This document shows, in pieces, positions 2,811-19,913 of a DNA stretch of 20,000 nt. Source of the DNA: an uncultured virus (IMG/VR IMGVR_UViG_3300042556_002263) (taxonomy: Duplodnaviria; Heunggongvirae; Uroviricota; Caudoviricetes). Position numbers and translations under genes: made by a program. The stretch lies in IMG/VR virus record IMGVR_UViG_3300042556_002263; one strand, written 5' to 3'. The notes beneath the pieces were generated by a model, which searched no databases, was not told the origin of the DNA, and saw only the letters and a program-made list of their open reading frames with translations. How positions within the stretch are numbered: position 1 is the stretch's first letter; the number at the start of each line of letters is the position of its first letter.

Positions 2811-4148
2811 TCAGTCAGGTGCGCCGTCGAAAGTCACCTTAACGAATGACTCTGGACGCTTGACTGCGAGAGCGAGACGCTGCTCGGCGAGGATGACGAT
2901 TGCGTTGCGGACGAAGAAGTCAGCATGCTGTTCCGAGATTCGGATGTTCGCCTGCTCGCGGTCGTACAGTTGAGCACCTGTACCGAATGCGCCGACAAGT
3001 GCGACACCCTCGGTCATTGCTGGTGACTCTACGACTGGCAGACGCCAAACCTTTGGCTCGCCACCGAGAGCGACAGACACAGCGACCAGGTACTGGCCGT
3101 TTGAGTCCTTGGTCAGTTCGATGTCTTCCCAGTCGTTAGGGTGGAGAACCACGCCTGACGGCTCGTAGTAGGCAAGGAACGACAGTGTCGCTGCACGACG
3201 GATTGCGTCAGCCTTTGTGTCGGCTACAGGAAGGGTTGCACCGTCTGACCAGTCATAGGTCTGGATGCCGCTTGTCTGCAGAACGCCGGTCAGGTTCTCA
3301 CCGTTGCCGTCGCCATGAAGAATCTGAGCGTCCTCCTGAAGACGGAGACCGTACATCAACTCGTTGTCGATGATTGAACGCAGTTGTGGCTCGTCGGCAA
3401 GAACGTTGCGGTGAGCAGCCTCCCAGTGAGCAATGGTGCGAACTGGAGCCTGATGACCCTCGAACACCATTGAAGACTGTGGCTTAGCAGCGAAGTTCGT
3501 GTTACCGGCGTTTCTTTCAGCCACAGTAGCAGCGTTGTTTGTGCCACCACCGACTGAGGTGAAGCCGAGCATACGGAAGTACTCGATGACCGCAGCAGTT
3601 GTGGTGCGGCTTGGGAAGAGGTCGCGAACTCTCTTGACTCTCTGCGGAGGCATCACCATTGGGTCACGCTGTACTGAACCGAAGTCAGCAGCAGCACCGC
3701 GAGCAAGTGTGCCCGAAGGAGTTGTGGTGTAGATGTCCTTGAAACGGAGGTCTGAAGTGAGCGAAGCGCCAATCTGGAAAGGCGAAGGCATGTTTGCGCC
3801 GTTGCGTCCACCGTTAAGAGCCTTGAACTCTGGTGAAGCGAGGAACAAATCGCCGATGCTCTTGTTGCCGATGCCCTTAACCGAGTAACCAGCAGCAGCG
3901 GCAGCAGCAACTGACTCTGCAGGAGCCTGTGAGCCCCAGTTCTCTACGGTGGTCATTGCCTCAAGGCCCTCGATGAGTCCCTTGATTTCCTTGATGTCGG
4001 CCATGTTCTTGTCGAACGCGGTCTTTTGTGAAGCAGAAACGACAACTGTGCCGTCTTCTACGCGGAATGAGTCTGCAATCGCCTTGTTATCGGCCATCTT
4101 GGTCCGAAGGGCTGACTGCAATTCTGAAAGTCTTGCTTGGTCTGACAT
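2811..4148 (-). CDS. Major capsid protein, HK97 fold, with N-terminal coiled-coil (delta/scaffold-like) domain
   Basis: Contains RVRDLFP, VAE..KPQS, PVRTIAHW, LADEPQLRSIIDNELMYGL..EDAQILHGDG.GENLTG, VLHPNDWEDIELTKDSNGQYL and FVRNAIVILAEQRLALAVKRPESFV. AGGAG RBS at 4155-4159. Confidence 0.95.
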   Translation of the reverse strand: MSDQARLSELQSALRTKMADNKAIADSFRVEDGTVVVSASQKTAFDKNMADIKEIKGLIEGLEAMTTVENWGSQAPAESVAAAAAAGYSVKGIGNKSIGDLFLASPEFKALNGGRNGANMPSPFQIGASLTSDLRFKDIYTTTPSGTLARGAAADFGSVQRDPMVMPPQRVKRVRDLFPSRTTTAAVIEYFRMLGFTSVGGGTNNAATVAERNAGNTNFAAKPQSSMVFEGHQAPVRTIAHWEAAHRNVLADEPQLRSIIDNELMYGLRLQEDAQILHGDGNGENLTGVLQTSGIQTYDWSDGATLPVADTKADAIRRAATLSFLAYYEPSGVVLHPNDWEDIELTKDSNGQYLVAVSVALGGEPKVWRLPVVESPAMTEGVALVGAFGTGAQLYDREQANIRISEQHADFFVRNAIVILAEQRLALAVKRPESFVKVTFDGAPD

Positions 4149-4266: not shown

Positions 4267-4515
4267 TTATTCGGAATGTTTTTTATCTCTAGAAATAAAA
4301 GGCTTGAAGAGGTCTGAAGTCACCGTGCTTGAATCGACGTCAATTAAATCAAATAAATCTTCAAAAATGCCGTCAATCGTAGGCTTAATTTCCTCAAGTG
4401 CGTCTGCCCGCTCGTCTTGGCCAGTTGCCCTCAAAACAGCAATGAATCGTTCGATTTCATCTATTTTCATTTTCTGAAGTTCAGAAGGAGTTGCTTTCGA
4501 ATTAAACGATGTCAT
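4267..4515 (-). CDS. Small hypothetical protein (82 aa from ATG 4515), possible partner or immunity protein of the upstream effector
   Basis: ATG 4515 overlaps the TGA of the 1108-aa gene (ATGA), which is more plausible than the track start at 4593 inside that gene. Confidence 0.6.
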   Translation of the reverse strand: MTSFNSKATPSELQKMKIDEIERFIAVLRATGQDERADALEEIKPTIDGIFEDLFDLIDVDSSTVTSDLFKPFISRDKKHSE

Positions 4516-7500
4516 TTCTTCCTCATTGTCTTTATTTCCAAACCTGGTGTTCCCTGTCTTTCTGGATAGGATAGACCAAGCAAGGCTATCCATCTTCCCC
4601 TCGGTATGGACGGGAATAGTTTTTCCAATAAATCAACAGTTGATTTATCTATTGTCGAAATATTATTGTTTGCCCTTGTTCTTTCGGAGGGTTTTGACGT
4701 AATAGTTCTGCCAACCTCCGCTATCAATTCATGCACTCCATATCTGGCATATTCAGAATATCTCTTGGCAACATCATCAAATATTCCGCCTCTGTCTCGA
4801 ATTATGTCAGTAATCATGCTGTCTTTTCTGCCAAATAACATTTCGTCTATTAGGGCATCTAATGAAAGCGTAATTTGAAGCATGTTGTTTTGAAGTACGT
4901 CTTCTACCATTTCAAGCGCTTTTGCTTTAATCTGCGGTTCCGTAAGTCCTGTATATTGCTTTTTTACTTCGCGTATTGCGTCTTCCAAGAATCTTGCTTC
5001 TATATATTTTGGTAAATCTACGCCTGCAAAAATTTTTCTTACCACTGCTCCTGGGTCACTTGCTAATTGCTCAAGACCTTTTATGTATGTATCAAATCTT
5101 GCATCAAAAGTTTGAGGGTCTACCGCCATCATTACCGAATCTAGATAATGAAACCATTCATGTCTCAATGTTTCTTGAACAAAATCAAACTTTTTGTCGT
5201 CAAAACTTGAGCCAATGGCCTCATGTTTGCCCTTTTTTATGTGCTCTCTGCCGATAACAATAAGTGCTGCAAATGGAGTATGGTATGCAGATGCATTGCC
5301 CATTGGACCACCCTCTGGCCTGCCATCCCCATTAATCATCATTGGCAAACCAAACTCCTCAACCAGGCTTCTGAATGCAGGATTATCAGTAAGTTCGTCT
5401 TCGAGAACTTTTCTAAGTTTTTCTTGCTCACGAGGGTCATATCCAATATTGGAAAGTATTGTTTTAAGTTTCCAATTTCTATTGCCTGAATCTGAAATTA
5501 TTGAATACCTTAATGCTGGTATTGAGTCAAAAAGTCTGTCGTAAAACTCGTCTTCCGTTTCGTTGCTTCCCCTTATTGGGACAAACTGTTCAACAACTTC
5601 CCTAATTCCCTTCGGTGTATCAAGTCTTCCGCGAAGAGACAGTCTTTCTATGCTTATTGGAGATGGTGGACCAGCAACCGCACCCATTGCCTCCTCTCTT
5701 TTGTAGACCCCACCATCTGCAATCATCTGAAGTTTCTTTGACAGATATACGTCAGTATTTTTAGGTGAACCGTCTTTATGTTTTGTAATTCTGTTGTTCA
5801 GCCTTTGTATAAAACGCTGAATTCTTGCCTCTATCTTTCTGTCTATGCCTGGCAGTGTGGATATAGACGTCTGAGCCCCAGTTCCCGGTTGTGTCCCAAA
5901 TGGACTTGACCCACCAACTCTCCCCTGCTGGCTTCCTGGTTTATTTTTAGGAGGCGTGTATCTAGAGCCTTTTTTCTTTTTAGAAGAAGAAGCAAACCCC
6001 ATAAACTCATCTGATTCTTTGAGTGCTTCTTGCGCTTCATCTGAAAGAACTGATTTATCGCCAGGCTTTGGCTCTAGCGGATTACCGTTCATAAACTCAT
6101 CAAGTTTTTTTTGGTCAAAAACTTCTAGTTTTCCATCTTTGAAGGATGCCAATAGTCTCGGTGGTTTTCCCGGCTCTACCTCGTTATCCCATATATAAAA
6201 TTCGTCCACTTCACCATTAGCAACAGCAGAAGAAACCATTCTTGGAATAGAGCGAGCAAAATGGTCTGTTTGGTCAGGTATTTTTCTGCCTTGGTCTTTT
6301 TCTCTTTGTCGCAATCTGCGTGATGCCTCCGCCTGCGAAACATGAACCCAATGCGCAACAACTCTGTCGCCATTCCGTCGTGCTTGTGCAATTAATGCTC
6401 TCTGTCTTGTTGAGCCAGCACCAGTTGCAACTACGTCAGAACCATCTTTTCTTGCATCATCAATTGTATGCTGTGCTGCCCTAAGTGATTCATCATGGAC
6501 CATTGGCGCACCAGCGCCATCGCTATATCCGGGTAAGCCCATTTTTATAAAATCTGGGTCAACATGGGCGGCTTCATCTCTTGCTGGAACAAGACCTTTT
6601 GGAACAAGATGGTCGTCTAGGACCGTTGTTTTGCCACCTCCAGTTGTTCCACCAATCAAATATGTTGTTCTCTGTTTTTTGCCTTTATTTTTTGGCTTAA
6701 CAAGACCGCGAATTAGTTGACCCATTTTCTTTCCACCGAGGTTTCTGAATGGGTTTGTCGGCGATGCGTCTGGGTTTTCCAAACCTTCTATGCCAAAGTC
6801 TTCGCTCTTTATTGGCTTTGAAGTTGAAGCAAAACCTCTCGTGCTTCTGCTTCTCACGGAGAAGTTTTCAATTGGTTCACCAAATAATTGTTGTCTGCGG
6901 GAAGATGATGTTTTATCAAACCACGAAGCAACAGCATCTATTGAAGATTGAGAAATTGGTTTTTGTTCTGACTGGGCCGGGAGTTTTGGTTTTGGAATAT
7001 TTGGTCTTTCAAATGCTGAACCATCTTGCAATAGGCCGTCTCCGTCTCCGTCCTCAGCATTCGGGTCAAATCTTTGTGTGATTGTTCTTGCTGCGAATCT
7101 AGACACTCCAGAGATTTTTGGACCAATAGCCTTGCCCATTATTTCCTCGACAAGACTCTTTTTTCTTTTTTTCAACTCTTGCGATAAAACAGTCCTGATT
7201 ACCTTCTGGGTATTCTTTTCTTGATTTAAGCGACCAAGCGATGTCATGCCGGTTAGGTTGTTGTAATCCGTCATGTTTGTACATGGCATCCAGACTATTT
7301 TTCCAGACTTAGACATTCTTCTACTGACGCCTATGCAGCCAAGTTGTCTTGCTCTTCTACGCGCAGATTCTATGTCTGTAAATACATCGGTGTCATTGTC
7401 TCTCGGAGAGTACTGCTCTGACTTTTCTTCAAGAGATTTTGTTGCAAAACCGCCAGGAACATTTGGTGGATTTGGATTTCCGTGAAATATCCCCGGTATA

Positions 7501-7838
7501 CGACCGCCGCTTACTATTCCAACCGGATTTCCGGGCTTGCCATTCCATGATGTTAGCCCTACGCCTGGCGTGCTGTTTATTCCGCCAACGCCTCTTTCGC
7601 GTAGGTTTTCCCAGCGTCTTTTTTTTCTTTTGCCCTTCTTTTTTCTTCTAGAAGAGCGTTTTTCCATCTCAAGTATTGTTGTTCTTGACTTAACAGACAT
7701 GGGTTCAGTGAGCGACATGTACTGTTTTATTGAGGAACAGGGAATCCATTCACCTCTTGTGTTTTGATGCGCGCCAGAGCAACCAATCTGGGCAGCCCGT
7801 CTTATTGCAAGCAGTTTTGAAACGAAACCATTTTCCAC
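4512..7838 (-). CDS. Multidomain protein (1108 aa): two DUF3721-like repeats, DGDGDG tag, zeta-toxin-like P-loop kinase, C-terminal HExxH zincin metallopeptidase
   Basis: Repeats A..RA.Q[IL]GC.G...W[IM]PC. Walker A GTTGGGKT after a hydrophobic strand, then HVDPDFIK, VHDES and A.RR..R...GRKIP. HEWFH at 5148-5162 with downstream YSEYA..HELIAE. Confidence 0.8.
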   Translation of the reverse strand: MENGFVSKLLAIRRAAQIGCSGAHQNTRGEWIPCSSIKQYMSLTEPMSVKSRTTILEMEKRSSRRKKKGKRKKRRWENLRERGVGGINSTPGVGLTSWNGKPGNPVGIVSGGRIPGIFHGNPNPPNVPGGFATKSLEEKSEQYSPRDNDTDVFTDIESARRRARQLGCIGVSRRMSKSGKIVWMPCTNMTDYNNLTGMTSLGRLNQEKNTQKVIRTVLSQELKKRKKSLVEEIMGKAIGPKISGVSRFAARTITQRFDPNAEDGDGDGLLQDGSAFERPNIPKPKLPAQSEQKPISQSSIDAVASWFDKTSSSRRQQLFGEPIENFSVRSRSTRGFASTSKPIKSEDFGIEGLENPDASPTNPFRNLGGKKMGQLIRGLVKPKNKGKKQRTTYLIGGTTGGGKTTVLDDHLVPKGLVPARDEAAHVDPDFIKMGLPGYSDGAGAPMVHDESLRAAQHTIDDARKDGSDVVATGAGSTRQRALIAQARRNGDRVVAHWVHVSQAEASRRLRQREKDQGRKIPDQTDHFARSIPRMVSSAVANGEVDEFYIWDNEVEPGKPPRLLASFKDGKLEVFDQKKLDEFMNGNPLEPKPGDKSVLSDEAQEALKESDEFMGFASSSKKKKGSRYTPPKNKPGSQQGRVGGSSPFGTQPGTGAQTSISTLPGIDRKIEARIQRFIQRLNNRITKHKDGSPKNTDVYLSKKLQMIADGGVYKREEAMGAVAGPPSPISIERLSLRGRLDTPKGIREVVEQFVPIRGSNETEDEFYDRLFDSIPALRYSIISDSGNRNWKLKTILSNIGYDPREQEKLRKVLEDELTDNPAFRSLVEEFGLPMMINGDGRPEGGPMGNASAYHTPFAALIVIGREHIKKGKHEAIGSSFDDKKFDFVQETLRHEWFHYLDSVMMAVDPQTFDARFDTYIKGLEQLASDPGAVVRKIFAGVDLPKYIEARFLEDAIREVKKQYTGLTEPQIKAKALEMVEDVLQNNMLQITLSLDALIDEMLFGRKDSMITDIIRDRGGIFDDVAKRYSEYARYGVHELIAEVGRTITSKPSERTRANNNISTIDKSTVDLLEKLFPSIPRGRWIALLGLSYPERQGTPGLEIKTMRKK

Positions 7839-7843
7839 ATTAA

Positions 7844-8173
7844 TCAGAACAAACCTGTTGGTAAGTCCCCGTCATCCATTGGGTCAACATTCTCTCGACC
7901 CTCCATCTTGAGAACTGCTTTTTGCGCCTCTTCTGGTTTATCGGCATACCTCTTTTGATACAAACGGGCTTCCTCTAGGTCGTCTGCCCATTTTGCTTCG
8001 AGAGTGGAGTACATTCTCTCCATGCCACCCTCTTCTCCAGAAGCAGAAAGTATTCTCTCTGTCTCCTTTTGAACATCCTGCTTGTACTCTTTTCTCTTTT
8101 TAAGAGATGTAGTAAAAGGAGGCCAATCAAGAATAAGTGAGTATTCTTTATGCTTTGACATGAACTCTTCCAC
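7844..8173 (-). CDS. Small charged hypothetical protein (109 aa; start may be ATG 8161)
   Basis: Packed between two large genes with gaps of 2 and 5 nt; Glu/Asp/Lys-rich. Confidence 0.65.
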   Translation of the reverse strand: MEEFMSKHKEYSLILDWPPFTTSLKKRKEYKQDVQKETERILSASGEEGGMERMYSTLEAKWADDLEEARLYQKRYADKPEEAQKAVLKMEGRENVDPMDDGDLPTGLF

Positions 8174-8175
8174 TT

Positions 8176-11100
8176 TTAACTCGCTCTCTGGATGTCGTAA
8201 ATTTCTTTCATTCTACCTCGCTTCATTGGTCCGTCAACAATGGCTAAAGCGCCTCTGTTGAACCACACAATCGGCGAATTTCCCTCATGGTCAACACCGT
8301 CGTATCCGTAAATCATGGCGGCATAGTGCTCATCTTTTGACGCAAGTGATTCCATGTATTTTAGTGCATCCCATAGTTCCTGTCTCATTTCTGGAGGTGC
8401 AGTCTCCATATATTTAAACATGTTTGACAGGAGTTGACCTGCTTCAGTTTGCCAAATTGGGTCGCCATCTGCAAACGCTTTAAGAATTTCAGCCTTTAAT
8501 TCTTTTACCAAGTCTTGCGGGTCAAGGTCTTTTGCCCCCTGTGTTCCACCGCCAATTCCGGAGAGGGCTTTATGTACTTCACTCCAAATTTTTCTATGTT
8601 CGGCCTGAAGTTTTGCTGCCTCAGTGATTGTTAAAACCCTTGTATCTGGGGAAATAAGAGCAAGCGTTCCCTGTTCATAAGCGAGATAACCATCCCAGTT
8701 CGTACCAGGTCTTGCCCAGTATTCACCAGGACCGTATACAGCACCGCCTTCACCAGTGATAAATCTTTCTGGGTCTTCAATGTAGTCCTTAATCCAACCT
8801 ATTGCTCCGGCCTCGTTGTTGGCAGGCGGTGGGGGTGTTCCGTGACCACGCTGTATTACCTTCCATCCTTGACCAGCAAGGAATTCAGCATCTTCTTCTG
8901 TTATTGGTGTAGCAAGGGCATTATATCCCTGGGCGGTCCATACATTACCTAGTTCCTTACCAGCATTTTGTCCCTTTTGTTCTTGAAGCAGTTCAAGTGC
9001 TCGCGGGTCATCTTTTCCTCTAAATAGAATTGCAAGTTTTTGAATGCCCTTTTCATCAACTTTAGGAACTCCGCCTTTTCCATTTCCAAAAATTGTTGGG
9101 TTGGATGACTTTGTCGATTCAATTTCTTTCATGACATCATCAGCGCTCGGACCACCCTTGAGTTTGCGCTTAAGTCTTCTGCCGGTTCTTGCAAGCGCTC
9201 TTCTTGCTCTTTCTTTTGCCCCCGGTGCACCTGGTCTGTCTTCGCCAAGACCGCGTACTATGCCGCGCCTTTGTCTGCGTAGTTCTCTCTTGGCTTTTGC
9301 CGCCTCGGCGTTTTCGAAAATCCTGTCGGCAAACTTTTTTAATTTTCCGCTCTTTCCTTTTCCGACAACGGCCCTCTTGCCTTCTTTGTACTGTTCATAT
9401 TCAGTAAAGAATGAAGAAGGCGCTTTCCAGTCAATTTTGGGGCGAGTTTTACCTTCAAATGGGTCTTTTGTGCCCTTCAATATACTGCCCGCCGCATTTC
9501 TGCCAAGTCCCTGATTTCGTGACCTGGCGGTCAGGTGCTCCATTAGTTCCCAGTTATCTGTTTCAAACATTGAGTCAAAAACCTTAAGGTCCTGCAGGTC
9601 ATCTAGTAGAGTCCTTTTTTCACTCTCTAGTTTTTTGACTTTATTTTCTAGTGATTTTAGCGTTTTGGGGTTTGTTGGTGTTGGTGAACTTTGCGCCGCC
9701 TGAAGAGCATTGTTTGCAGCAACTAGGTCAGAATCAATGTCTTCGATAATTGCTTCAACTGCAAGTTCGAAACTTCTTAACGCTTCTCCGGAAATCCTAG
9801 AATCTTCAGACCATGGTTTGCTGTCTGCGTCTGTTTTGGAGCCAACTTTTCCGGTCTTTGCCAAGAAAGAACCCCACCATGTGCCACTACCGTACTCATC
9901 GCCAAGTTCTCTTTTGATTGTTTTCTGAATCTGTTCATATCTATCTTTTAGATTTTCAACAACTGTTGCTTTCTGTGCATCATCAAGACCGTTAAATATC
10001 TGACCGTCAGTATCTTTAACTTTGTCAACTCCTGGTCGTTTTCTGGCCGTTGCTTTACCACGCGAAGCAAAACCCTGAACCTGTCTTTCTGTTCTTGCAG
10101 TAGAAACTCTTCTTGATACACCGCGACCCTGCTCCGCAACTGGAGTTGAACGGCTAGCAATCGGTTTGACGTTTTCTAATCTGGGTTTTCCACCGGGAGT
10201 GCGCGCTCTGCTCGGAGCATCTTTTGGTGCCTGTAACGGTTTCCCGCCAGCAACCCTCGTGGGGCTAGTTCTTCCACTGGCGCTAGAAAATCCTTGCCAC
10301 GCTCTTGTGGCGGCTCTTGCGTCTACCGCGCCACCTGTTGCCCTGTCGTTAACTCCGGGAACTGCTGGTCTTTGGTACGGAGTTCCCTCTTGCACTATGC
10401 CGTCACCATCACCGTCCCAAGCCTTGGGGTCAAATCTTGCCATTGCGGCACGACCCGCTCTTCTTGCGAGTCTTGTTCCTCCACTAAGTCTCTCGCCGAG
10501 GGCTTTGAACTCAATATTTTCACCGAGACTCTTTGTCTCTAGTGAATCAATTATTCCGGTTTTAGTTCTTATGTTTTGGGAATTTATAAGAGCAGATTTT
10601 ATTTTCATTCCAAGTCTTCTTTCCGAAGACCTTCCAACATTTGAGTCAAATCTTTGTCTTAGGGATTTGCTTTGTGGGGTGCTTGGGTTTGCGTTGTACA
10701 TCCATTTTTGGAAGTTAAATGCATAATTATTGACTTTTGCCTCATGCGCAATGCTTCCCTCTTTAATGCTTTGTCTCATGTACAGGCACTTGTAAGAAAT
10801 AGCAGGAGAATACTGATATCCAGTAAAGTAGTTAATTGGAGTATCGATTACGGCTGGAACAATAGAGGCTGTCTTTATTCTTATAGAACCGGCATGTCTA
10901 TAGGATTTTGAAGCAACAAAATTTGAAACAGAAACATCACCATATCCAAATGTAAGTATTAGAGACTTGAGTTCTGTATCGGATGTATTTTTGTATGGAC
11001 CTTGAATTATTCCGGCAGGTATTTGCGATTCCTCTAGACTCTTTACCTCTACCTTATTTGCCCAGTTAGCCCACTCTTTGCCCTGACCCTCATATCCATA

Positions 11101-11184
11101 GTATTTAATGCCATAATCGTCTTTTACAGCGATGGCGAACTTTTCATTGCGTAGTGCATCAAAGAGTGTAGATACTTGCTTCAT
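8176..11184 (-). CDS. Multidomain protein (1002 aa): N-terminal leader, DGDGDG tag, coiled coil, C-terminal ADP-ribosyltransferase-like domain
   Basis: C-terminal motifs QGYNALATPITEE..VIQRG, GGAVYGPGEYWA and YAAMIYGYDGV..IVWFNRGALAI resemble ART-like domains of phage head proteins. ATGA overlap with the upstream gene. Confidence 0.65.
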   Translation of the reverse strand: MKQVSTLFDALRNEKFAIAVKDDYGIKYYGYEGQGKEWANWANKVEVKSLEESQIPAGIIQGPYKNTSDTELKSLILTFGYGDVSVSNFVASKSYRHAGSIRIKTASIVPAVIDTPINYFTGYQYSPAISYKCLYMRQSIKEGSIAHEAKVNNYAFNFQKWMYNANPSTPQSKSLRQRFDSNVGRSSERRLGMKIKSALINSQNIRTKTGIIDSLETKSLGENIEFKALGERLSGGTRLARRAGRAAMARFDPKAWDGDGDGIVQEGTPYQRPAVPGVNDRATGGAVDARAATRAWQGFSSASGRTSPTRVAGGKPLQAPKDAPSRARTPGGKPRLENVKPIASRSTPVAEQGRGVSRRVSTARTERQVQGFASRGKATARKRPGVDKVKDTDGQIFNGLDDAQKATVVENLKDRYEQIQKTIKRELGDEYGSGTWWGSFLAKTGKVGSKTDADSKPWSEDSRISGEALRSFELAVEAIIEDIDSDLVAANNALQAAQSSPTPTNPKTLKSLENKVKKLESEKRTLLDDLQDLKVFDSMFETDNWELMEHLTARSRNQGLGRNAAGSILKGTKDPFEGKTRPKIDWKAPSSFFTEYEQYKEGKRAVVGKGKSGKLKKFADRIFENAEAAKAKRELRRQRRGIVRGLGEDRPGAPGAKERARRALARTGRRLKRKLKGGPSADDVMKEIESTKSSNPTIFGNGKGGVPKVDEKGIQKLAILFRGKDDPRALELLQEQKGQNAGKELGNVWTAQGYNALATPITEEDAEFLAGQGWKVIQRGHGTPPPPANNEAGAIGWIKDYIEDPERFITGEGGAVYGPGEYWARPGTNWDGYLAYEQGTLALISPDTRVLTITEAAKLQAEHRKIWSEVHKALSGIGGGTQGAKDLDPQDLVKELKAEILKAFADGDPIWQTEAGQLLSNMFKYMETAPPEMRQELWDALKYMESLASKDEHYAAMIYGYDGVDHEGNSPIVWFNRGALAIVDGPMKRGRMKEIYDIQRAS

Positions 11185-13184
11185 TTCAGCGCTCCAAATA
11201 TTTCGAGCAGGGTGTTTTTGCTATTTTCATAGACACTGATTCTCGTTTCAATAATCTGTCCGACGATTTCAAGGTGTGCTTTTTCAGCGCCAGAAAGTTT
11301 TCCGTCGTTATACATCCTTGATTTCAACTGCGTAAAGTTAAATTTCCTTGCTCTTAATAATAAAGCGTCTATTTCTCTTCTGAAAGCAAGTTGTTGCTGT
11401 TTCTTTAGTTGTTGAAAGTATGACAAGTACTTGTCATTTCCAGGAGATTTCATAAAATCATTGATTGTCATCCTGGTGCGTTCACGAATTTTAATTTTGT
11501 CCAGGTCGGTGAGGGCAGATGTGTAGTTGTTTGTAACAACAGGTTTAGTTATCTCGCCATTTGACACGGGGACAATGGAACCTGGGTCCCTGACTCTTTG
11601 GTCCGTAATCCAGTCAGATACAAGCATTTTTGCTACGTCCTCAGGCTCATAGTCTGTGAACTTTTTTCTTCTGTCCACTTCATAGCCACGAATTATGCTG
11701 CCCGGGTCCTCAACCATGTATTTCCTATTGCTTCCAGTCCCCACAAAGAAAACGTCTGGGGATTCAAGGCCGAGAAACTGTTGGAAATCTGAGGCAACTC
11801 TTTGCCCAATGTGTTCATTTTCCCCAGACGGCGAGTGAAGTATGTACTTGGGCCCGTTTGGCACTGAAACAATGCTCCTCTTAGCGTCAAGTTTTTCAAC
11901 CTTAAATGCATTGCTTCTAGATATTGCTTGACCAAGTATTCCAGGGTCTATGTCGCTAAGTTTCCCACCTTCTGAAATAAGCGCTACCGCCCTATCGAGG
12001 TCAGTTATTTGTTTGCCGATTTGTGATTCACTATCAGTTTCACGAGAAGATTCTGCAATAGGCTTTGCTTTCTTTCCTTTTCCAAACAATTCATCAGCCC
12101 ATCTCGGAATTGTTCTACCGTTTTTGGAAACAGATTCATTTGGGTTCTTTATGTTTACAAAATTTTCTGAGTAGCCAATACCGTCACCCGTTTGGTTCAC
12201 TACTTCTTTTAAGCGTGCAGTTGGGTCATTGCTGATATCTATTTTTGCAGCAGAGTTAACTGTTCTTCCGAGTTTTCTTCTTTCACCAACAGTGAGCGGC
12301 CTCTTCTTTTCTAGACTTATCTGTGAGCCGCCAGGCATAACATATGTGAGTTTTGTTATTCCGGTGTTGGATAAAAGACCCAGTTCCTGTCCACCCATTT
12401 GGTCGGCACTTTGTACAGAAAGAAGATATGTAGCGCCCTCCATGTCTCTGTTGTCCGGGATTGCTCTTAATACCTGTGCTGATACAACTGGCTCTAAAAC
12501 AAAACCATCCCTGCGAACCATTCTGGCGACAGGTTTGTCAACCCTTCCTATTTCGGATACTAGATTTCTTGCTGCCGCAACTACAGCACCGCGATTTTCG
12601 TTTCCGACTCTTGGAATTTGTGGGCGTCTTGATTGAACTATGCTTTCTGGCATTGCCTGTCCAGTAATAGGAGTCGATTCGCCACGAGAAGCCTGAATTG
12701 CGCCTCGCGCGACTCTTCTCAATGCCCCTATTGCCAAACCGAGTGGGGAAGGAAGGTCAAATAGTTTTGCACCGCATGTTGAAAGTCTATTGTCCGTAAA
12801 TCTTCCACCATATTGGTATCCCTCTGGGCATCTTGAAACACCATCACCGCCTGGGGTTCGTCCTGGAATATTTGGTTTTCCTGGTGTTATTGCTCTCCAT
12901 CCACCAGACCTGACAGGACTTCTTAGCGGGCTTAAGTTTCCGGGCAATGCAACAGAACCAATTGACTGCGCGGCTTGGCCTATCGGGCTGTGGGTTCCAA
13001 GAAGACCAACTTTTACATCGTATTTTCTTGTCAGTCCTGAGCGTCTTGACAGCGCTTTGTAGTCAACCAAATTTTGGTCTCCATTTAGGCGTTTTTTTAC
13101 AATTGACTTATTTGTAATAGCGCTTTTAGTTGATATAAAAGAAATGCGCCTTACTACATATCGAGTCGTTGTGGAATCAAACAT
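11181..13184 (-). CDS. Multidomain protein (667 aa): RCP..RFT..C tag, degenerate JAB/MPN-like domain, degenerate HipA/PI3K-like kinase fold
   Basis: Kinase-like pattern KYILH..EHIGQRVASDFQQFLGLESPDV..MLVSDWITDQRVRDPGSI (canonical D.l..N.DRH.gN). JAB-like pattern RRDGFVL..DMEGATYLLSV..MGGQELGLL..GITKLTYV without the HxH motif. Confidence 0.55.
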   Translation of the reverse strand: MFDSTTTRYVVRRISFISTKSAITNKSIVKKRLNGDQNLVDYKALSRRSGLTRKYDVKVGLLGTHSPIGQAAQSIGSVALPGNLSPLRSPVRSGGWRAITPGKPNIPGRTPGGDGVSRCPEGYQYGGRFTDNRLSTCGAKLFDLPSPLGLAIGALRRVARGAIQASRGESTPITGQAMPESIVQSRRPQIPRVGNENRGAVVAAARNLVSEIGRVDKPVARMVRRDGFVLEPVVSAQVLRAIPDNRDMEGATYLLSVQSADQMGGQELGLLSNTGITKLTYVMPGGSQISLEKKRPLTVGERRKLGRTVNSAAKIDISNDPTARLKEVVNQTGDGIGYSENFVNIKNPNESVSKNGRTIPRWADELFGKGKKAKPIAESSRETDSESQIGKQITDLDRAVALISEGGKLSDIDPGILGQAISRSNAFKVEKLDAKRSIVSVPNGPKYILHSPSGENEHIGQRVASDFQQFLGLESPDVFFVGTGSNRKYMVEDPGSIIRGYEVDRRKKFTDYEPEDVAKMLVSDWITDQRVRDPGSIVPVSNGEITKPVVTNNYTSALTDLDKIKIRERTRMTINDFMKSPGNDKYLSYFQQLKKQQQLAFRREIDALLLRARKFNFTQLKSRMYNDGKLSGAEKAHLEIVGQIIETRISVYENSKNTLLEIFGALK

Positions 13185-13813
13185 TAATTTTCCAAAGTCC
13201 TGTTTTCATATGGAATTGACTTAGTTCCCTCTTCTGTTTCGCCTTCTTGCTCCCAATTGGAATCGTCAGAAAGCATTTTGCAAAAATCTGGTTCCATTTG
13301 CTGGAATCCCATCATTACTTTTGCCGCAAAATCTTCATCTTCTGCTGTAACAACATTATCATAATCCTCATCACGCATATCGTCTGATTTTTTTCCTGGA
13401 TTGCCTTTTGCTATTCTTGCAACCCTTTTACTGAAATCAGAATCTGACCAAATTGAACCGTTAACTATTCCACGCATTTTTTTTCTGCAGTTTTTCATTC
13501 CAGGGTGATGGCATCCCTCATTTGGCCATAAACCAGTCGTTTCATGGTGTAGCCACGCACAGATATTGTTCAACGGATACAATTCCGGGTGGTCGGCAAG
13601 GATTACCTTACATCTGCGAAATCCACCAGGCTTTTTCATAATTGGACGCCAGTAGCGCAAAAGTCTTTCTAGGTTTCCCCTTCTTGGGCCACGACCCTTA
13701 AGAATGTCGCCAGTAAGTCTTTCCTGTGGAACATCAAAAAGAACATCTTGTGGAGCCTTTTGCTCAAATATAAAACCTTTTATGGCTCCCTTGTGTTCAC
13801 CCCATGTAGTCAT
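13184..13813 (-). CDS. Phage head-associated protein (209 aa) with Cys/His domain
   Basis: GNLERLLRYW..PGGFRRC..L..ICAWLHHETTGLWP resembles a domain recalled from actinobacteriophage head modules. Coupled to neighbours on both sides. Confidence 0.65.
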   Translation of the reverse strand: MTTWGEHKGAIKGFIFEQKAPQDVLFDVPQERLTGDILKGRGPRRGNLERLLRYWRPIMKKPGGFRRCKVILADHPELYPLNNICAWLHHETTGLWPNEGCHHPGMKNCRKKMRGIVNGSIWSDSDFSKRVARIAKGNPGKKSDDMRDEDYDNVVTAEDEDFAAKVMMGFQQMEPDFCKMLSDDSNWEQEGETEEGTKSIPYENRTLEN

Positions 13814-14256
13814 TTTTCTTTCATCCCATCTAGGCGTATTGATTTTTGAGTATTTAGCCTAACCATTGAAACATTTTGTGTTTCTAAAAGTGATTTAAAT
13901 TCAAATACTCTTCTGTTTATAGATTTTGACTTCATCTTAGATTTTAGAACATCTGTAACTATTGGAACACCAGATAAAAGGCTTTCCGGTATTTTCTGTG
14001 TTTTGTTTACAAATATTCTTTTCCATCTATCTTCATCGGAGTCTGCGTCACTGGACTCGTTGTCCCATAGATATTTATGAAAACTGCTTGATTTTATTGG
14101 TTTAAGGCCATTTAGTTTTGTAGCGGTCTTCCAAAAATTTACCACTTTGCCACCTTTGTCGGTAGACAAAACGCCGTCTCTGTTTTTTGAGTCAGCGTCA
14201 ACTACATAATAAAGTTTTTGTTCACCATTAATGGTTGCAACAAGTATTGCCTTCAT
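13810..14256 (-). CDS. Hypothetical protein (148 aa)
   Basis: ATGA overlaps at both ends; contains EFKSLLE near the C-terminus. Confidence 0.7.
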   Translation of the reverse strand: MKAILVATINGEQKLYYVVDADSKNRDGVLSTDKGGKVVNFWKTATKLNGLKPIKSSSFHKYLWDNESSDADSDEDRWKRIFVNKTQKIPESLLSGVPIVTDVLKSKMKSKSINRRVFEFKSLLETQNVSMVRLNTQKSIRLDGMKEK

Positions 14257-17200
14257 GACGCAACCTTTTCTTTTGGCTTGCTTCCCTTTTTGTCTGGAAC
14301 TGTTTTTTCTATTATTGCATTAACTTCCATTTTGGCCAGTTGCCGCAGTGCTCTAATTCCCGTCATTCCGTATGGCGGCGGCGCTATCCACGTCTGTTCG
14401 GCCATTATGTCTATACCGTTTTTGTTTGTGAATATAACTTCTGCTACCCCGAAAGATATTAATCTTTCTTTTAGTTCTTGTGCTGCTTCAACTTGAAGTA
14501 AATAGGTTAGGTATTTGGGATTGTAGCCACCGCCAACCATTCCACCCTTGTTGAAAAAGTCGTTTATCTGAGCGTCTGTCATGCCTCTCGCTTTAAGCAT
14601 GCTGGAAACCCTCTTTTTTCCACCTATTTGATGTGACTTGGATACTGGTTTGTTTTCTATGTCAAATATCGAAATAGGTATTTTGATGTGTTCTATGTCG
14701 TTAAGTGATATTTCGCCGACTATAAAACCCTCAAAAACATCATCACCATTATCTCTTAGGAAGTTTCTGTAGTCCTTATTCATATAGGCATAAAGCGCTG
14801 AGGTTATTGTTTCTGCGGCTTGTTTCCCGCCCTTTATTACATTGCCAAACACCGTCATCATTATTCTTTGTTGGCTGTCGTCGGTTAGAAGTGAATAGAA
14901 ACCTTCGTTGTCTTCGCTATCTGCTCTTCCATACCCTATGCGTTTTGAGTTTTCGGAACGTATTACGAGTTCAATTCCCCTGCCGTAGTCGGCAAATTCC
15001 TCAGAACCAACTCTTGTACCAGCCATAAATAGATTTTGTTCTATGCGTTTAGTATCTGATTCATGCATTAGTTCAACCGGGGTGAGGGAAAACTCCGCAG
15101 AAGAAACCGAGCCACCTATTATCTTGTCTCTATTTTTCTTCATTTCAGAAAGCATTTTGCTGTCTACGTCAATATTTGCAATTTTGCCGCTTGTTAAAAA
15201 CTCTTGAAGAGAAGATTTAGTCATGGATACTCTTGCTCTTCTGTCTATCGCGCCAAAAACAGAACCGGCAATCTTCAATAGAATTTTGTATATTTCATCT
15301 TCAGAGTTTGATTTCAAAAATCTATTCAGTTCTTTTTCTTCAGGGAACATTTCTTTCGATGCTTCTTCTTTTATTTGTTTTATTGAAGCGCGAATAGACT
15401 TTAGGAAAGTGTCATAGTATTCGTCTACAGAAATCTTGTTTCCGTTTATGTATACATTTTTGTCATTAAATAATGCATATCCCATTTGTGATGCAGAATT
15501 AATTATTTCTTCAGCCTTATCTAGTGTGGCCCTGGACATTCCGCTTGAAGAATAGTTTCCTGAAGAAATCATAAGGTCTCTTCTTGACTTTTTGTATTTT
15601 TCAGAACTGCCTGAAAGAAGTTTTTTAACTCTTTCGTCAGTTGTTTTTTCTATTGATTTAGCAAGTTTTTCTTCTGCCTTTTTCATGTACTCAATAGCAG
15701 ACACCTGCTCGGTGATTTCCGCCTCAGCAACACCGTCTTCACCAAATCCAGTAACTTTCATTTTTCCAGGAGGAACAAGAACGTCTCCAGATTTTTCAAC
15801 TTTTGCCTTAGAGCCAGGAGGCACAACAACTCTAACTTTTTGTTTTTTGCCAGTTGGTTTTTTCTTCTCTGGTTGTGGTTTTTCCCTTAAACCAGGGCCT
15901 AGGACTTTTATCTCTATTTCATCAAATTCTGATTTTCCAAAAAGACTAGAAACCCTATCCCTTGCTCCGGAAAGTTTTGATTTCGTTGCTTCGCTTAATT
16001 CTGATGCTCTTTCCTGAAGAACGCCAACCATTCGAATTGCGCTTGCTTTATTTTCTTCCGTGTTAACCGAATCTGCTATTTCGTTTATTGCTTTTATGAT
16101 TTCTTCCGGAAGACCTTCTTTTGCAATTTTGTCAAGACCGTATGCTCTAACTTTTTCAGCAACTTCAGGACTAATCCATCCCTTCATAAGCATCATCCCG
16201 AGCATTTTTTCTGCAGCATCTCTACTTCCGCGTCTTGCTATGGGTATTAGTGCTGCTGCTGGTCCACCAGCCGAAAAAGCAATTGCTGTTTCTGCAGCAA
16301 GCGACACAAGGTCTTCGTTTTCTGGGTCTACCCCCATTTTTTCCATTGCTTTTCGTGCCGCTCTTGAGTTGAGCAATCTTCCCGCTATCCCAGCGCCAGT
16401 TGCGGCGCGGGAAGAACTTGCGAAACCTCTTCCGTATACTTCTGCTTTGCTTATGCCTTCTGTTTCTATTACGGAACCTATTTCATAATCTGATTCGTCT
16501 ATTTCAAATTCTGCAATAATTTCTTCATCGACCTCTGATTTATCAATTATTTGCAAAACTGGAATTACGGTTTCTGTGTCGTCAAATGAAGTTTCGTTTT
16601 GCGGTTTAATACCGTATGACGAATATATGTCTTCAAGCATTGCCGCATCAGCGCCATATCCTGGATTGTCAACTGAAGAAATACTTGAAACTGGAGTACT
16701 CTCTACTGCTCTGGATATTGTTTCAATTTCACCGGCAGACAGTTTTGCATTTTGAGATTGTGAAACTCTGGAAGCAGAAGCCATTCCACCAGAATATTCC
16801 CTTAAAAATTCTGGTGCGTCTGGTCTCATTTCCCAAATTGCTCGTGTTCCTGGTAGGGAACCGTTTGTTTTTAAATATTCGTTAATGTCCCAAATGTCAT
16901 TAATTGGCGCAATGAGGCCCCTGCCTATTCTTGACTGAGTATCTTCCCATTGTTTAACTGTTCTCTCTACCCTTTCAAGATATGAACGGCATGGTCCAAC
17001 ATCGTCGTAACTATCCCTATCTCTTGCCCTTACATCAGGGGGGCAACCTGCATCAAATAACTCTCTTGCTTCTTTAAGTTTTTGACCAGCCTCAAGATAC
17101 TTTTCTCGCAACTTTGTAATCGCTTCAACAAGTTTTGCTTCTTCGTCTGGGGATATCGTATCGCCTCTTAAAAGTGAACTTGCCATTTCTTTTAAATCGA

Positions 17201-19913
17201 CATCGTCAAGCGGCAGTTCATCCATTAAATCATTAATATATTTTTTCTTTTCGCGGTCATTTGCCCCCTTATTGTCAGGGGCAATACGCATATTCCTTTG
17301 TGCTCTCCATGTGGCAAGTAGGCCACCTTTTCTTTTTGATGAACGGTCTGATGGATTTTCTGGTTTACCATCAATCAAGTCTCTAACATCATCTGTACTT
17401 ATTTCGCCGTTTCGAATTTTTACCGCTATGTCGCTAGTTCTTCTTCCGCCGAACGGGTCGTATTCTCGACTCCCCCCCTCGGATGGGGTGCGTGGTTCTG
17501 GGGCTGTTGGCACAACTATTCCTATGTCGTCTGCCGACCACCACGGAGCAAGTCCACTAGGGGTTGATGGCGTTGGTGCGCCATCTGGAACATCTGGAGT
17601 TGGTCCATCTGGTGCAGTTGAGCCTCCAGGTGTAGGTGGTGTTGATGCGGGGACCAAGGGTGATGGTGAATAAACCTTGTCTATAAAACTGTCTAGTTCT
17701 GGGTCGTCGCCTATTAGGCCAACTTTTCTGTTTGCCGCTAATTCTGTAATTGTTTCAAGAAGAGCAATGCTTCTTTCCCTATTTGCTTTTTTAAATCCTA
17801 TCGAGTCAGCATTGCCAATTGCTTGAAGAGCAGTTTGCTGTACATCTCCAGAGTATCTTCCTGCAACACCGTCTAATCTCCTATCGATGAGGTCTTCTAT
17901 ATCGGCACCAAGAGCAGCCCGAAGATGTTCTGGAGAGGCTGCTTCCAGAAAAGATTGAGCGACATCAAGAAGTTCACCGTTTGTCATATCGTCGAGTTTT
18001 TTTACCGTTCCATCACTGTTTTTAGGCAATAGTCCGGTGAAATCAGAAATACCTGATTCAGACATTGCTTCGACATAGCGACCTATTGAACGAATTTGGT
18101 CGTAATGGTAAGCCTCATGAGCCGCTGCTTGAGCGCCAAAATCTCTCCAACCATTTCCAGTCATCGCTGCTAGGTCTACCGAATATGTATGAGCCCAATA
18201 TCTGCCTGTTTCATCGGCATGAATTGTGGCCGCTATTGCCGCCCATTGTTGTTCCTGAAGTCCGCCAGTTGCTTCGTATATATCTATTGAGCCCTCTGGT
18301 GGTGCGCCTCTATGCCCCTGAACAGCCGGACCAGAACCTATGTATAAATAATCGCCTCCAGCCATTCCGTTGAGGTTGGTGAAATCATGAGCATCCGGTC
18401 CACCTCCATGTTGTTTTGTAAAGCCAGACGGGTTCACAGTTATTTTTACATTTTTTAATTCTTGCGGTCTTAGGGTTGCGTCTATTGCAAGTTGCTCAAG
18501 AGCGCCAATTTTCATTTGAGACTCTCTATCCATCATCGCTTCTATAGCCCTAGCGAATGGTGTTCCAGTTCCCTTCTCGGCCTGAAACTTTGCCTCAAGT
18601 TGACTTGGCGTTAATCCTGGATATCTTGCTTCTATAGCGTCAGCATGAATTCTAAAAAATTCATCTCTTAAAAACTGTTGATGTGTTTCTTTTGTTCCGC
18701 CTACATAAAACTCATGACCGCTAGCGGCAAATCCATATCTAGGGTCGCGACCAATTGCTTCTAAAAGATTAACTATGTCCGCTTCTTCGTCTCCTGTAGT
18801 TGGAACGCCAAGTTCGGACATTAAACGCTGAACTGTGTCTCTTTTTTCCTGAGCAATTCTTGCCATTCTCTCGGCTCGACCATCGGTAAGGCGCATTGCC
18901 TCTCTCAGTGTTGGTGCTATTGATGCCCTATATGACGGGTCGAAGTATTTTTCTCCGACAAGGTGGTCCGGTCCACCAAGGTCCGTGTATGCGGAAGCCA
19001 ACGAAGCGAGACCACGCATACCGTCTCGTTTGTATGCTTCTCTGATTTTTGTGGCAGAAATACCAACCTGTAAAAGACTTGCAACGAGTGTTACCCTGTC
19101 CTGTGATTGTGCAATATTTTGCACCGCGCCAACTATCGACTCGTCGTCCTCCGGCATTGTAAGAACCATTGCCATCGCTGCAACTATCTTTTGCCCTGCC
19201 TGTGAAACTGCAAAACAGCCTTCACCTCTTTCGTTTGTGAATCTGTTTGCCGCAGGCGTTCCGGGCGGGCATCTGAATTTTCCAAGAGCATCAACTACAA
19301 CACCGGCGGCTCTGGCGGCAAAATTTATTAATTTTCCGCCCGTTTCAGATTCGCCAATTGTCTTACCAAGACCTTTTACCTCTAGGCCCTTGTCTTCATA
19401 TGGCGCAAATGGGTCAAACGGGTCGTGCCCTGTTGACTTGATTGGATTGCCAGTTCTTGGGTCAAGTTTGTATCTTTTAACGCCAACTTTTACACCTGGT
19501 GGAGAAATTGGAGTATTGCTTTGCCCTGGTTTAACCCATCCAAAATTCGGAACAGGGTCAGCCGACATGAGGGCCGCTTTTCTTTCCGGTTCTGTCACAT
19601 GCATCTTGAGGTATGTGCCTGGTTCTTTTTTCCCGTTGGGGTCGTAAACCATTCCCCTGTCATTTACGAGTTTTGAAGAACTAGCACTTTCAAGACCGCG
19701 TTTTCTTCCGTCAGAATCGCCACTAGTTGAAGCACCAGGCATTGCCGCCTTAACAGAAACGTCGGCAATCAATCTCTCCGTGCTTGAAGTTACCCTCACT
19801 CCGGCTTTGAATAAAATTGCAGAGATGTCTGGGTCTAGACGGGTCTGTTTTGTTCGTATGCCAGGAGCGTAGTGGCGAATTTTTCTGTAGTTCACCCCCG
19901 TCATGCGGGCCAC
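14253..19913 (-). CDS. Giant multidomain protein (1886 aa): RCP..RFT..C tag, HExxH metallopeptidase-like domain, Pro-rich linker, split degenerate VIP2-like ART, C-terminal DUF3626-like domain
   Basis: AAAHEAYH at 18105-18119 with downstream GRYS..LLETITE. KVRVVVPPGSKA..DVLVPPG resembles the VIP2 ART C-half. ADYG..ELVIR...KRIGYGRADS..FEGFIVGEISLNDIEHI resembles DUF3626. Start is GTG 19913 or ATG 19904. Confidence 0.65.
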   Translation of the reverse strand: MARMTGVNYRKIRHYAPGIRTKQTRLDPDISAILFKAGVRVTSSTERLIADVSVKAAMPGASTSGDSDGRKRGLESASSSKLVNDRGMVYDPNGKKEPGTYLKMHVTEPERKAALMSADPVPNFGWVKPGQSNTPISPPGVKVGVKRYKLDPRTGNPIKSTGHDPFDPFAPYEDKGLEVKGLGKTIGESETGGKLINFAARAAGVVVDALGKFRCPPGTPAANRFTNERGEGCFAVSQAGQKIVAAMAMVLTMPEDDESIVGAVQNIAQSQDRVTLVASLLQVGISATKIREAYKRDGMRGLASLASAYTDLGGPDHLVGEKYFDPSYRASIAPTLREAMRLTDGRAERMARIAQEKRDTVQRLMSELGVPTTGDEEADIVNLLEAIGRDPRYGFAASGHEFYVGGTKETHQQFLRDEFFRIHADAIEARYPGLTPSQLEAKFQAEKGTGTPFARAIEAMMDRESQMKIGALEQLAIDATLRPQELKNVKITVNPSGFTKQHGGGPDAHDFTNLNGMAGGDYLYIGSGPAVQGHRGAPPEGSIDIYEATGGLQEQQWAAIAATIHADETGRYWAHTYSVDLAAMTGNGWRDFGAQAAAHEAYHYDQIRSIGRYVEAMSESGISDFTGLLPKNSDGTVKKLDDMTNGELLDVAQSFLEAASPEHLRAALGADIEDLIDRRLDGVAGRYSGDVQQTALQAIGNADSIGFKKANRERSIALLETITELAANRKVGLIGDDPELDSFIDKVYSPSPLVPASTPPTPGGSTAPDGPTPDVPDGAPTPSTPSGLAPWWSADDIGIVVPTAPEPRTPSEGGSREYDPFGGRRTSDIAVKIRNGEISTDDVRDLIDGKPENPSDRSSKRKGGLLATWRAQRNMRIAPDNKGANDREKKKYINDLMDELPLDDVDLKEMASSLLRGDTISPDEEAKLVEAITKLREKYLEAGQKLKEARELFDAGCPPDVRARDRDSYDDVGPCRSYLERVERTVKQWEDTQSRIGRGLIAPINDIWDINEYLKTNGSLPGTRAIWEMRPDAPEFLREYSGGMASASRVSQSQNAKLSAGEIETISRAVESTPVSSISSVDNPGYGADAAMLEDIYSSYGIKPQNETSFDDTETVIPVLQIIDKSEVDEEIIAEFEIDESDYEIGSVIETEGISKAEVYGRGFASSSRAATGAGIAGRLLNSRAARKAMEKMGVDPENEDLVSLAAETAIAFSAGGPAAALIPIARRGSRDAAEKMLGMMLMKGWISPEVAEKVRAYGLDKIAKEGLPEEIIKAINEIADSVNTEENKASAIRMVGVLQERASELSEATKSKLSGARDRVSSLFGKSEFDEIEIKVLGPGLREKPQPEKKKPTGKKQKVRVVVPPGSKAKVEKSGDVLVPPGKMKVTGFGEDGVAEAEITEQVSAIEYMKKAEEKLAKSIEKTTDERVKKLLSGSSEKYKKSRRDLMISSGNYSSSGMSRATLDKAEEIINSASQMGYALFNDKNVYINGNKISVDEYYDTFLKSIRASIKQIKEEASKEMFPEEKELNRFLKSNSEDEIYKILLKIAGSVFGAIDRRARVSMTKSSLQEFLTSGKIANIDVDSKMLSEMKKNRDKIIGGSVSSAEFSLTPVELMHESDTKRIEQNLFMAGTRVGSEEFADYGRGIELVIRSENSKRIGYGRADSEDNEGFYSLLTDDSQQRIMMTVFGNVIKGGKQAAETITSALYAYMNKDYRNFLRDNGDDVFEGFIVGEISLNDIEHIKIPISIFDIENKPVSKSHQIGGKKRVSSMLKARGMTDAQINDFFNKGGMVGGGYNPKYLTYLLQVEAAQELKERLISFGVAEVIFTNKNGIDIMAEQTWIAPPPYGMTGIRALRQLAKMEVNAIIEKTVPDKKGSKPKEKVAS

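Follow-up and report, generated by a model that had tools for sequence, protein, structure and literature searches.

The nearest described counterpart, by analogy, of the sequence pattern reported here is found in phage prohead proteases, which process head proteins and ejection proteins. In phages T4, phiKZ and SPN3US the cuts made by these enzymes fall at a short motif. In T4, gp21 cuts after Glu, and the motif is S/A/G-x-E for phiKZ gp175 and for 201phi2-1, and A-x-E for SPN3US gp245 (PMC5694885). A second related group is the polyvalent proteins of phages and conjugative elements described in 2017 by Iyer, Burroughs, Anand, de Souza and Aravind, for which release of individual domains by proteolysis was predicted (PMC5512222). 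Here we examine a recurrent peptide, in its general form G-[FLM]-x-S, in three giant proteins encoded by an uncultured virus of the Caudoviricetes (IMG/VR record IMGVR_UViG_3300042556_002263). The whole 20,000 nt stretch of this virus that was analysed is referred to as the window, and the three proteins, of 1108, 1002 and 1886 aa, as P0001, P0002 and P0003. The reading we prefer, with a probability of roughly 45%, is that the motif is a junction signal in capsid-loaded, 'polyvalent' cargo and is cut by a prohead protease of the S78 family. That it serves as a proteolytic signal for some reader, whichever enzyme that may be, is probable.

As in T4, phiKZ and SPN3US, a short peptide is found in several head-region proteins of one phage at the edges of propeptides or domains, in proteins that probably include cargo for ejection; a prohead protease is, in the present case, encoded in related genomes. 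Unlike the sites described for those phages (PMC5694885), the motif contains no Glu, and it serves as a junction between the many enzyme domains of giant proteins, where the known sites serve to trim propeptides from N-termini. In the relatives, the protease is an HK97-type S78 enzyme to which cargo is fused. The motif is missing from the capsid protein, and its spelling differs among close relatives. A further difference is that the system described here is known from sequence alone. The likeness to polyvalent proteins lies in the presence of multi-domain effectors in a phage head-gene block and, in one complete related genome (G005), in a protease frame that carries the hallmark domains ArdcN and MPTase-PolyVal. 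P0001 itself contains two DUF3721 modules, a zeta-type kinase and a zincin-like domain, split by disordered linkers; among the hallmark Pfam families of polyvalent proteins, the zeta-type kinase is the only one that the window proteins matched. The N-terminal position of S78 in the polyproteins of this clade differs from the polyvalent proteins as presented by Iyer et al.; the word 'linker' does not occur in the text of that paper, and no junction motif is named in the passages drawn on here (PMC5512222). A full-text literature search found no published description of a G-[FLM]-x-S junction motif.

The coordinates of the three proteins, the motif copies and the associated features are listed in Table 1. 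P0001 comprises, in order, the two DUF3721 modules, a module with the core FDP-DGDGDG, the zeta-toxin-like kinase and the C-terminal domain that contains HEWFH. P0002 consists of an N-terminal part, another FDP-DGDGDG module, a disordered linker and a folded C-terminal part. No Pfam family was recovered for P0002 or P0003, even at an E-value of 5. The initial annotation of this DNA had listed six hexapeptides, and all six are present on the minus strand exactly where it placed them; in total, one short consensus recurs in 6-8 copies over three window proteins. An additional copy with Thr at the fourth position, GFATKS at residue 130 of P0001, obeys the same spelling rule in homologues (see below). 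Whether the possible site at residue 73 of P0003 is a member is uncertain; the sequence DSDGKKRGL[EQ]S is retained in most of the P0003 family, it does not follow the F spelling, and it may mark the end of an N-terminal leader. GLASLA at residue 301 of P0003 was rejected as a site, as it has Leu even in F-spelling genomes and its flanks are not rich in S, T or R.

Table 1. Coordinates of the giant proteins, motif copies and associated features in the window
Feature	Window position	Strand	Location or basis
P0001, 1108-aa multi-domain protein	4512..7838	minus	Open reading frame (ORF), Pfam, AlphaFold2 (AF2) domain map, fold matches
P0002, 1002-aa protein	8176..11184	minus	ORF
P0003, 1886-aa protein	14253..19913	minus	ORF; HEAYH at residue 599
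Major capsid protein, HK97 fold	2811..4148	minus	Pfam Phage_capsid, E 8e-43
GFASSS	5982..5999	minus	P0001 residue 614, C-terminal edge of kinase domain
GFASTS	6819..6836	minus	P0001 residue 335, N-terminal edge of kinase domain
GFATKS (Thr at fourth position)	7434..7451	minus	P0001 residue 130, before second DUF3721 module
GFASRG	10057..10074	minus	P0002 residue 371, end of disordered linker; best-conserved site
GFSSAS	10276..10293	minus	P0002 residue 298, start of disordered linker
GFASSS	16410..16427	minus	P0003 residue 1163
GMASAS	16770..16787	minus	P0003 residue 1043
KKR-GLES-ASSSK (possible site)	19680..19697	minus	P0003 residue 73
FDPNAEDGDGDGLLQDGSAFERP module	6984..7073	minus	P0001 residues 256-285; 50 residues upstream of residue-335 junction
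FDPKAWDGDGDGIVQEGTPYQRP module	10360..10437	minus	P0002 residues 250-275

The motif is over-represented in the three giant proteins. There are 6 copies of G[FM][AS]S, compared with a mean of 0.25 in shuffled sequence, and none of 20,000 shuffles reached 6; GFAS, with 4 copies against a shuffle mean of 0.075, is the sole tetrapeptide common to all three. With the looser core G[FLM]xS, 12 copies were found in the giants where 3.4 were expected (0 of 5,000 shuffles), and the other 11 window ORFs are at chance level (3 versus 1.8, P 0.28). However, the pattern was picked post hoc, and some tetrapeptide reaches at least 4 copies in 10% of 2,000 shuffles, so the counts alone are not decisive and it is conservation that decides. 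The codons, which had been reported to differ between copies, do so at all four positions, and every synonymous codon is used at the motif, including both Ser and both Leu codon families. As the codons vary freely, selection acts on the peptide. The basic residues noted after most copies are in fact present in all six, with K or R no more than 2 residues after the hexamer.

Homologue searches gathered 84, 54 and 57 hits for P0001, P0002 and P0003, respectively. The site at residue 371 of P0002 is a conserved island within a variable linker and is present in 45 of the 49 homologues. In an alignment of 33 sequences with identities as low as 33%, G371 and A373 never vary, and R367, Q368, S374 and R375 vary little or not at all. 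At residue 1163 of P0003, all but one of 45 aligned family members, with identities as low as 32%, have G-[FLM]-x-S between indel-rich flanks, with A, S, E, Q or P as the third residue. The second site in each of these proteins is kept only in closer homologues, with GLASRT some 20-50 residues further on in distant homologues of P0002 (residue 298) and DGLASRQ nearby in other homologues of P0003 (residue 1043).

For P0001, the stretch before the kinase contains a G-[FLM]-[AS]-S copy in all 20 of the homologues P0004-P0023, and distant homologues have GLRS, GLKS, GMRS or GFRS at the aligned position. The site after the kinase is kept in about half of P0004-P0023. Homologues with a different C-terminal domain still carry the motif after the kinase, and shorter ones terminate exactly at that position, so the motif survives exchange of the neighbouring domain and gene ends coincide with it. 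Conservation in homologues of other domain content had been proposed as a check in the initial annotation. The residue-130 site reads GFATKS, GMSTKS, GLSTKS or GFASKS. A logo of 117 non-redundant sites gave [R/S]-[R/S/T]-[G/S/R]-G-[L81 F26 M10]-[A89 S28]-S-[R/S/T/A]-[S/T]-[G/S/R], with no conserved Glu position. The general form is G-[FLM]-x-S, rich in R, S and G before and in R, S and T after.

The spelling of the motif is specific to the genome. The phage represented by the window uses GFAS, and related genomes use GLAS, GMAS, GLRS, GMRS or PLGS. Position 2 is F in record G019, L in G001 and M in G014, and G015 has Arg at position 3. In G005 (complete, capsid protein 75% identical to that of the window), G[FLM][AS]S is almost absent and the giant proteins repeat [PA]-L-G-S-R-S, with LGSR occurring 21 times. 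An unbiased count of tetrapeptides was made for the frames of more than 900 aa that begin with an S78 domain, and the motif spelling was the commonest tetrapeptide in 12 of 14. The top tetrapeptides in S78-led frames were GLAS (9 copies), GFAS (11 and 4 in two frames), GMAS (9), GMRS (15 in two records and 4 in another), GLRS (8 and 3), GFSS (4), R[LF]SSG and LGSR (17). The association of spelling with genome gave a chi-square of 145 (22 degrees of freedom) for position 2 and 101 (11 degrees of freedom) for small versus basic residues at position 3, values that include two near-duplicate records and some small expected counts. Orthologous sites change together. In the window and three other contigs of F spelling, the best-conserved P0002 site is RQVxGFASRS; four contigs of L spelling have RQVxGLASRS there, and orthologous sites in P0001 and P0003 switch from F to L likewise. 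Such concerted change at unrelated sites, together with free codon use, points to a single reader acting in trans.

Restriction of the motif to giant proteins can be examined in G001, a close relative of 132 kb with 166 ORFs and a capsid protein 85% identical to that of the window. Five giants, which hold 22% of its residues, contain 26 of its 31 G[FLM][AS]S copies (binomial P 3e-13). When these five were shuffled 5,000 times, the average was 1.3 copies and the highest count 7, versus the 26 observed, and the remaining 32,483 residues contain 5 copies versus 3.9 expected. Three of the five are homologous to P0001, P0002 and P0003; the other two are a 3112-aa protein (NUDIX and DUF3626; 11 copies) and a 2089-aa protein (9 copies). 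Tandem copies 6 residues apart also occur.

A highly conserved module of the form FDPxAxDGDGDGxxQxGTPFxRP is associated with the motif. It is present once in each of four of the five motif-bearing G001 giants, in no other G001 ORF, and each time lies 35-81 residues before the first junction. The module is also found in P0001, where columns D258, D263, D265, D267 and P279 are invariant (alignment A1), and in P0002. Of 18 protease frames, 11 contain it, each time behind a scaffold-like stretch of coiled coil. Over 34 aa, the P0002 copy (FDPKAWDGDGDGIVQEGTPYQRP) shares 79% identity with part of P0139, a protein that carries S78. The DxDxDG loop has the appearance of a calcium-binding loop. The module is a possible head-targeting or anchoring element, and it may close the part of the protein responsible for incorporation into the head, with the first cut following it.

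The positions of the sites relative to folded domains were examined in AF2 models of P0001 (38-row alignment, mean predicted local distance difference test (pLDDT) score 75.5) and P0002 (pLDDT 66). In P0001, segments with pLDDT<50 were 74-142, 229-264, 268-291, 327-342 and 614-644. Two copies had been said to bracket the kinase region, and residues 335 and 614 do flank the Pfam Zeta_toxin match (384-525); the structural match to zeta/PezT spans residues 354-585, and the fold modelled for 343-613 is that of a zeta/PezT/AvrRxo1-type kinase (Z score 15). The residue-335 site is inside the 327-342 segment, the residue-614 site opens the 614-644 segment and the residue-130 copy is inside the 74-142 segment. 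In P0002, residues 302-376 form a single long disordered segment, and the two copies that the initial annotation assigned to the linker of this protein are at its two ends. According to the models, then, the sites of both proteins fall in, or at the ends of, low-confidence segments between confidently predicted domains. Together with the conservation in all three families, this supports a recognition signal at domain boundaries.

The leading candidate for the reader is the S78 prohead protease, which is encoded in 18 of 20 related records; the two without it are fragments about 45% complete. It is always N-terminal in its frame (568-4740 aa), the frame lies directly after the portal gene, and in 13 of the 18 records the open frame that S78 leads is longer than 1,100 aa. 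In G001, it occupies residues 22-165 of the motif-bearing 2089-aa protein, whose gene follows the portal gene, and is the only clear Pfam peptidase in the 95 + 7 ORFs scanned. The S78 frame of G005 also holds five KTSC domains in addition to ArdcN and MPTase-PolyVal. The place of the S78 gene in the relatives would fall beyond the right end of the window. In the mechanism we propose, each cargo protein would enter the prohead via an N-terminal part that ends in the FDPxAxDGDGDG module. The S78 protease, as the first domain of one cargo polyprotein encoded just beyond the right end of the window, would then act on the linkers, which are exposed, and probably cleave the bond that joins position 3 to the invariant Ser. 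Cleavage, the position of the cut, the identity of the enzyme and packaging of the giants are all what we infer here.

Several observations weigh against a role for S78. Pfam detected no protease in the 20-kb window. Whatever the spelling of the motif, the S78 domains share 74-92% identity with the one in record G019, a close relative that uses GFAS, and in the alignment of the relatives' domains no column separates the F, L and M spelling classes. One column, that of the Glu in FNIDEAQG, does track position 3 (E in 8 of 8 genomes with a small residue and in 0 of 7 with Arg); no more than three of these contrasts are independent, and the tree itself is unresolved. The S78 domain itself ends in ...TISVKS and not in a G-[FLM]-x-S site. 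No copy of a junction-type motif is present in the capsid protein, whose N-terminal junction region (AAAAAAGYSVKG...SIGDLF) does not differ between GFAS, GLAS and PLGS genomes; the G001 portal and the 667-aa protein of the window also lack the motif. Finally, the head proteins of Brevibacterium phage Cantare and Gordonia phage GMA6, which are 47-49% (capsid) and 38-43% (S78) identical to those of this clade, contain no recurring junction peptide. A complex prediction for the S78 domain (alignment A3) with residues 350-395 of the P0002 linker, run without controls, favours neither side, with a score of 0.00 and a mark of 0.32.

All 18 S78 domains in alignment A3 end in ...HGANQLT-x-T-[IL]-S-[VI]-K, with Ser next in 14 of them, and Orf19 of Gordonia phage GMA6 ends in ...TVSVKS at the equivalent place. 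The end of the domain may be a self-cleavage point of the protease. In four relatives (G008, G009, G010 and G012), DUF6321 is fused directly behind the S78 domain; in the window it is a separate 231-aa gene (1435-2130, minus strand) downstream of the capsid gene.

A chance or compositional origin in low-complexity linkers rich in Ser, Gly and Ala would account for flanks rich in S, G, R and T and for the ease with which some tetrapeptide recurs in shuffled sequence. It is contradicted by the homologue data, namely conservation of position down to 32-38% identity and genome-specific spelling, as well as by the 26 copies versus 1.3 expected in the G001 giants and by position 2, as Phe, Leu and Met are not low-complexity residues. 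We consider this explanation very improbable. A motif that is recognized but left uncut, as a docking or anchoring site for the capsid interior, scaffold or portal, or as a site of Ser phosphorylation or glycosylation that marks hinges, is unlikely. With Gly and Ser invariant and the residue that separates them variable, the pattern would suit modification or docking no less than cleavage, the capsid protein, as the classical substrate of the protease, lacks the motif, and the S78 domain is constant across spellings. One motif-bearing protein also contains a zeta-type kinase domain. However, kinases of the zeta family are small-molecule or nucleotide kinases and not protein kinases. Up to 11 copies per protein at domain junctions, some in tandem, have the look of polyprotein sites, whereas docking needs no copy at every junction, and gene ends fall at motif positions.

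Cleavage by another protease, either the zincin-like HE[WY]xHY cargo modules, a proteasome-beta/HslV-like protein or a host protease acting after ejection, is in our view unlikely, even though the near-constant S78 domain would suit a different reader. The initial annotation had combined a conserved protein-level recognition signal at domain boundaries in three proteins, a view that we retain, with an encoded HExxH peptidase as the possible reader, which we favour less. In its support, the HEWFH domain of P0001 (residues 645-1093; window 4560-5906, minus strand) is confidently folded in the model (pLDDT about 90) and resembles a zincin. A wide structural search gave the anthrax lethal-factor zincin as its best match (1yqy_A; Z score 8.9, root-mean-square deviation 4.1, 176 aligned residues), a middling and single match; the domain has no Pfam family, and with Foldseek the kinase domain was the sole match for the P0001 model. 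Three HE[WY]xHY modules are present in the 3112-aa protein of G001 and three in a 2693-aa protein of G005, ArdcN and MPTase-PolyVal are in the G005 protease polyprotein, and such peptidases were predicted to process polyvalent proteins (Iyer et al., PMC5512222). On the other side, no HExxH was found in P0002 or in the motif-bearing 794-, 1298- and 2089-aa proteins of G001, so self-processing in cis cannot be general and the action would have to be in trans. The HExxH regions of the window matched no Pfam peptidase family, even at an E-value of 5.

The proteasome-like protein (MTTIAG...) is found in G001 and in all five further genomes, with 40-55% identity, and is more variable than S78, leaving more room to track the spelling. 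However, proteasome-type enzymes are processive degraders, not site-specific cutters. The G001 gene (L094:5643-6257, plus strand) is far from the head genes; the homologues are in G004, G005, G009, G010 and G012. A host protease would leave the differences in spelling between phages with 85%-identical capsids unaccounted for, unless their hosts differ.

Two other cleavage systems offer partial parallels. The maturation (M) and release (R) sites of herpesvirus assemblin are of the form hydrophobic-x-Ala|Ser, and the fold of S78-type prohead proteases is regarded as that of assemblin. With a small residue just before the invariant Ser, the motif would parallel Ala|Ser. Here, unlike in assemblin sites, the hydrophobic residue adjoins the presumed P1, and in other genomes P1 would be Arg, Lys, Glu, Gln, Gly or Pro. 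Prp/L27-type cleavage, ...FFA|SKK, acts on the capsid and scaffold proteins of Staphylococcus phage 80alpha, and its F-A-S followed by Lys is similar to GFASSSKKKK. The sites described here differ in being internal and multiple and not part of one N-terminal leader, and the likely host is an actinobacterium. A phage-encoded Prp cysteine protease (PF04327) was considered as a reader and rejected, with no match at E<=1 in any of five related genomes.

On the ORF list and Pfam matches, the minus strand of the window is a phage head-gene block, and the HK97-fold capsid gene marks the context as such. The order of transcription on this strand is the 1886-aa protein, proteins of 148, 209 and 667 aa, the 1002-aa protein, a 109-aa protein, the 1108-aa protein, a 108-aa protein and the major capsid protein. 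The 667-aa protein gave nothing usable with Pfam at an E-value of 5. The 209-aa protein (13184-13813) and a 150-aa protein (986-1438), both on the minus strand, are Cys-rich and have the N-terminal pattern M-T/S-T-W-...-G-A/E-I-K-G-F-I/R-F-E in common; on this resemblance they are probably paralogues. A fragment of a ribonucleotide reductase gene is at the left end of the window (2-454, plus strand), on the opposite strand to the head block, and at the matching place G001 encodes a class II ribonucleotide reductase (43449-45599). G001 also contains a tryptophan-halogenase family gene (110045-111562, plus strand; Pfam E 3e-103) adjoining genes for a 2-oxoglutarate-Fe(II) (2OG-Fe(II)) oxygenase and a glycosyltransferase.

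The capsid protein has 342 relatives in IMG/VR, on contigs of up to about 156 kb. No DNA match to cultured phages was detected for the window with megablast, or for P0001 with tblastn. The closest cultured relatives of the capsid protein (47-49% identity) and of the protease (38-44%) are from actinobacteriophages. G001 encodes two WhiB proteins, and because of these genes in a close relative the host is probably an actinobacterium.

The spelling has two variables, position 2 (F, L or M) and position 3 (Ala/Ser, Arg/Lys or Gly). It is doubtful that the spellings form a private, fast-evolving code, in which each lineage re-spells all its sites together to match a shifted protease specificity. 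If they did, cargo would be processed correctly only in phages of the same dialect, which would make the spelling a compatibility barrier when anti-host cargo is exchanged, and the phages would possess a natural set of near-orthogonal pairs of protease and site. The concerted re-spelling between close relatives would also be a clean natural case of protease-substrate co-evolution. If the motif is a cut site, it would set out for the first time what an HK97-type (S78) head protease recognizes in cargo, and it would explain how a few giant genes are enough for phages of abundant freshwater actinobacteria to load and release many enzymes. In thousands of giant phage proteins that lack annotation, the limits of the domains could then be read directly from the sequence.

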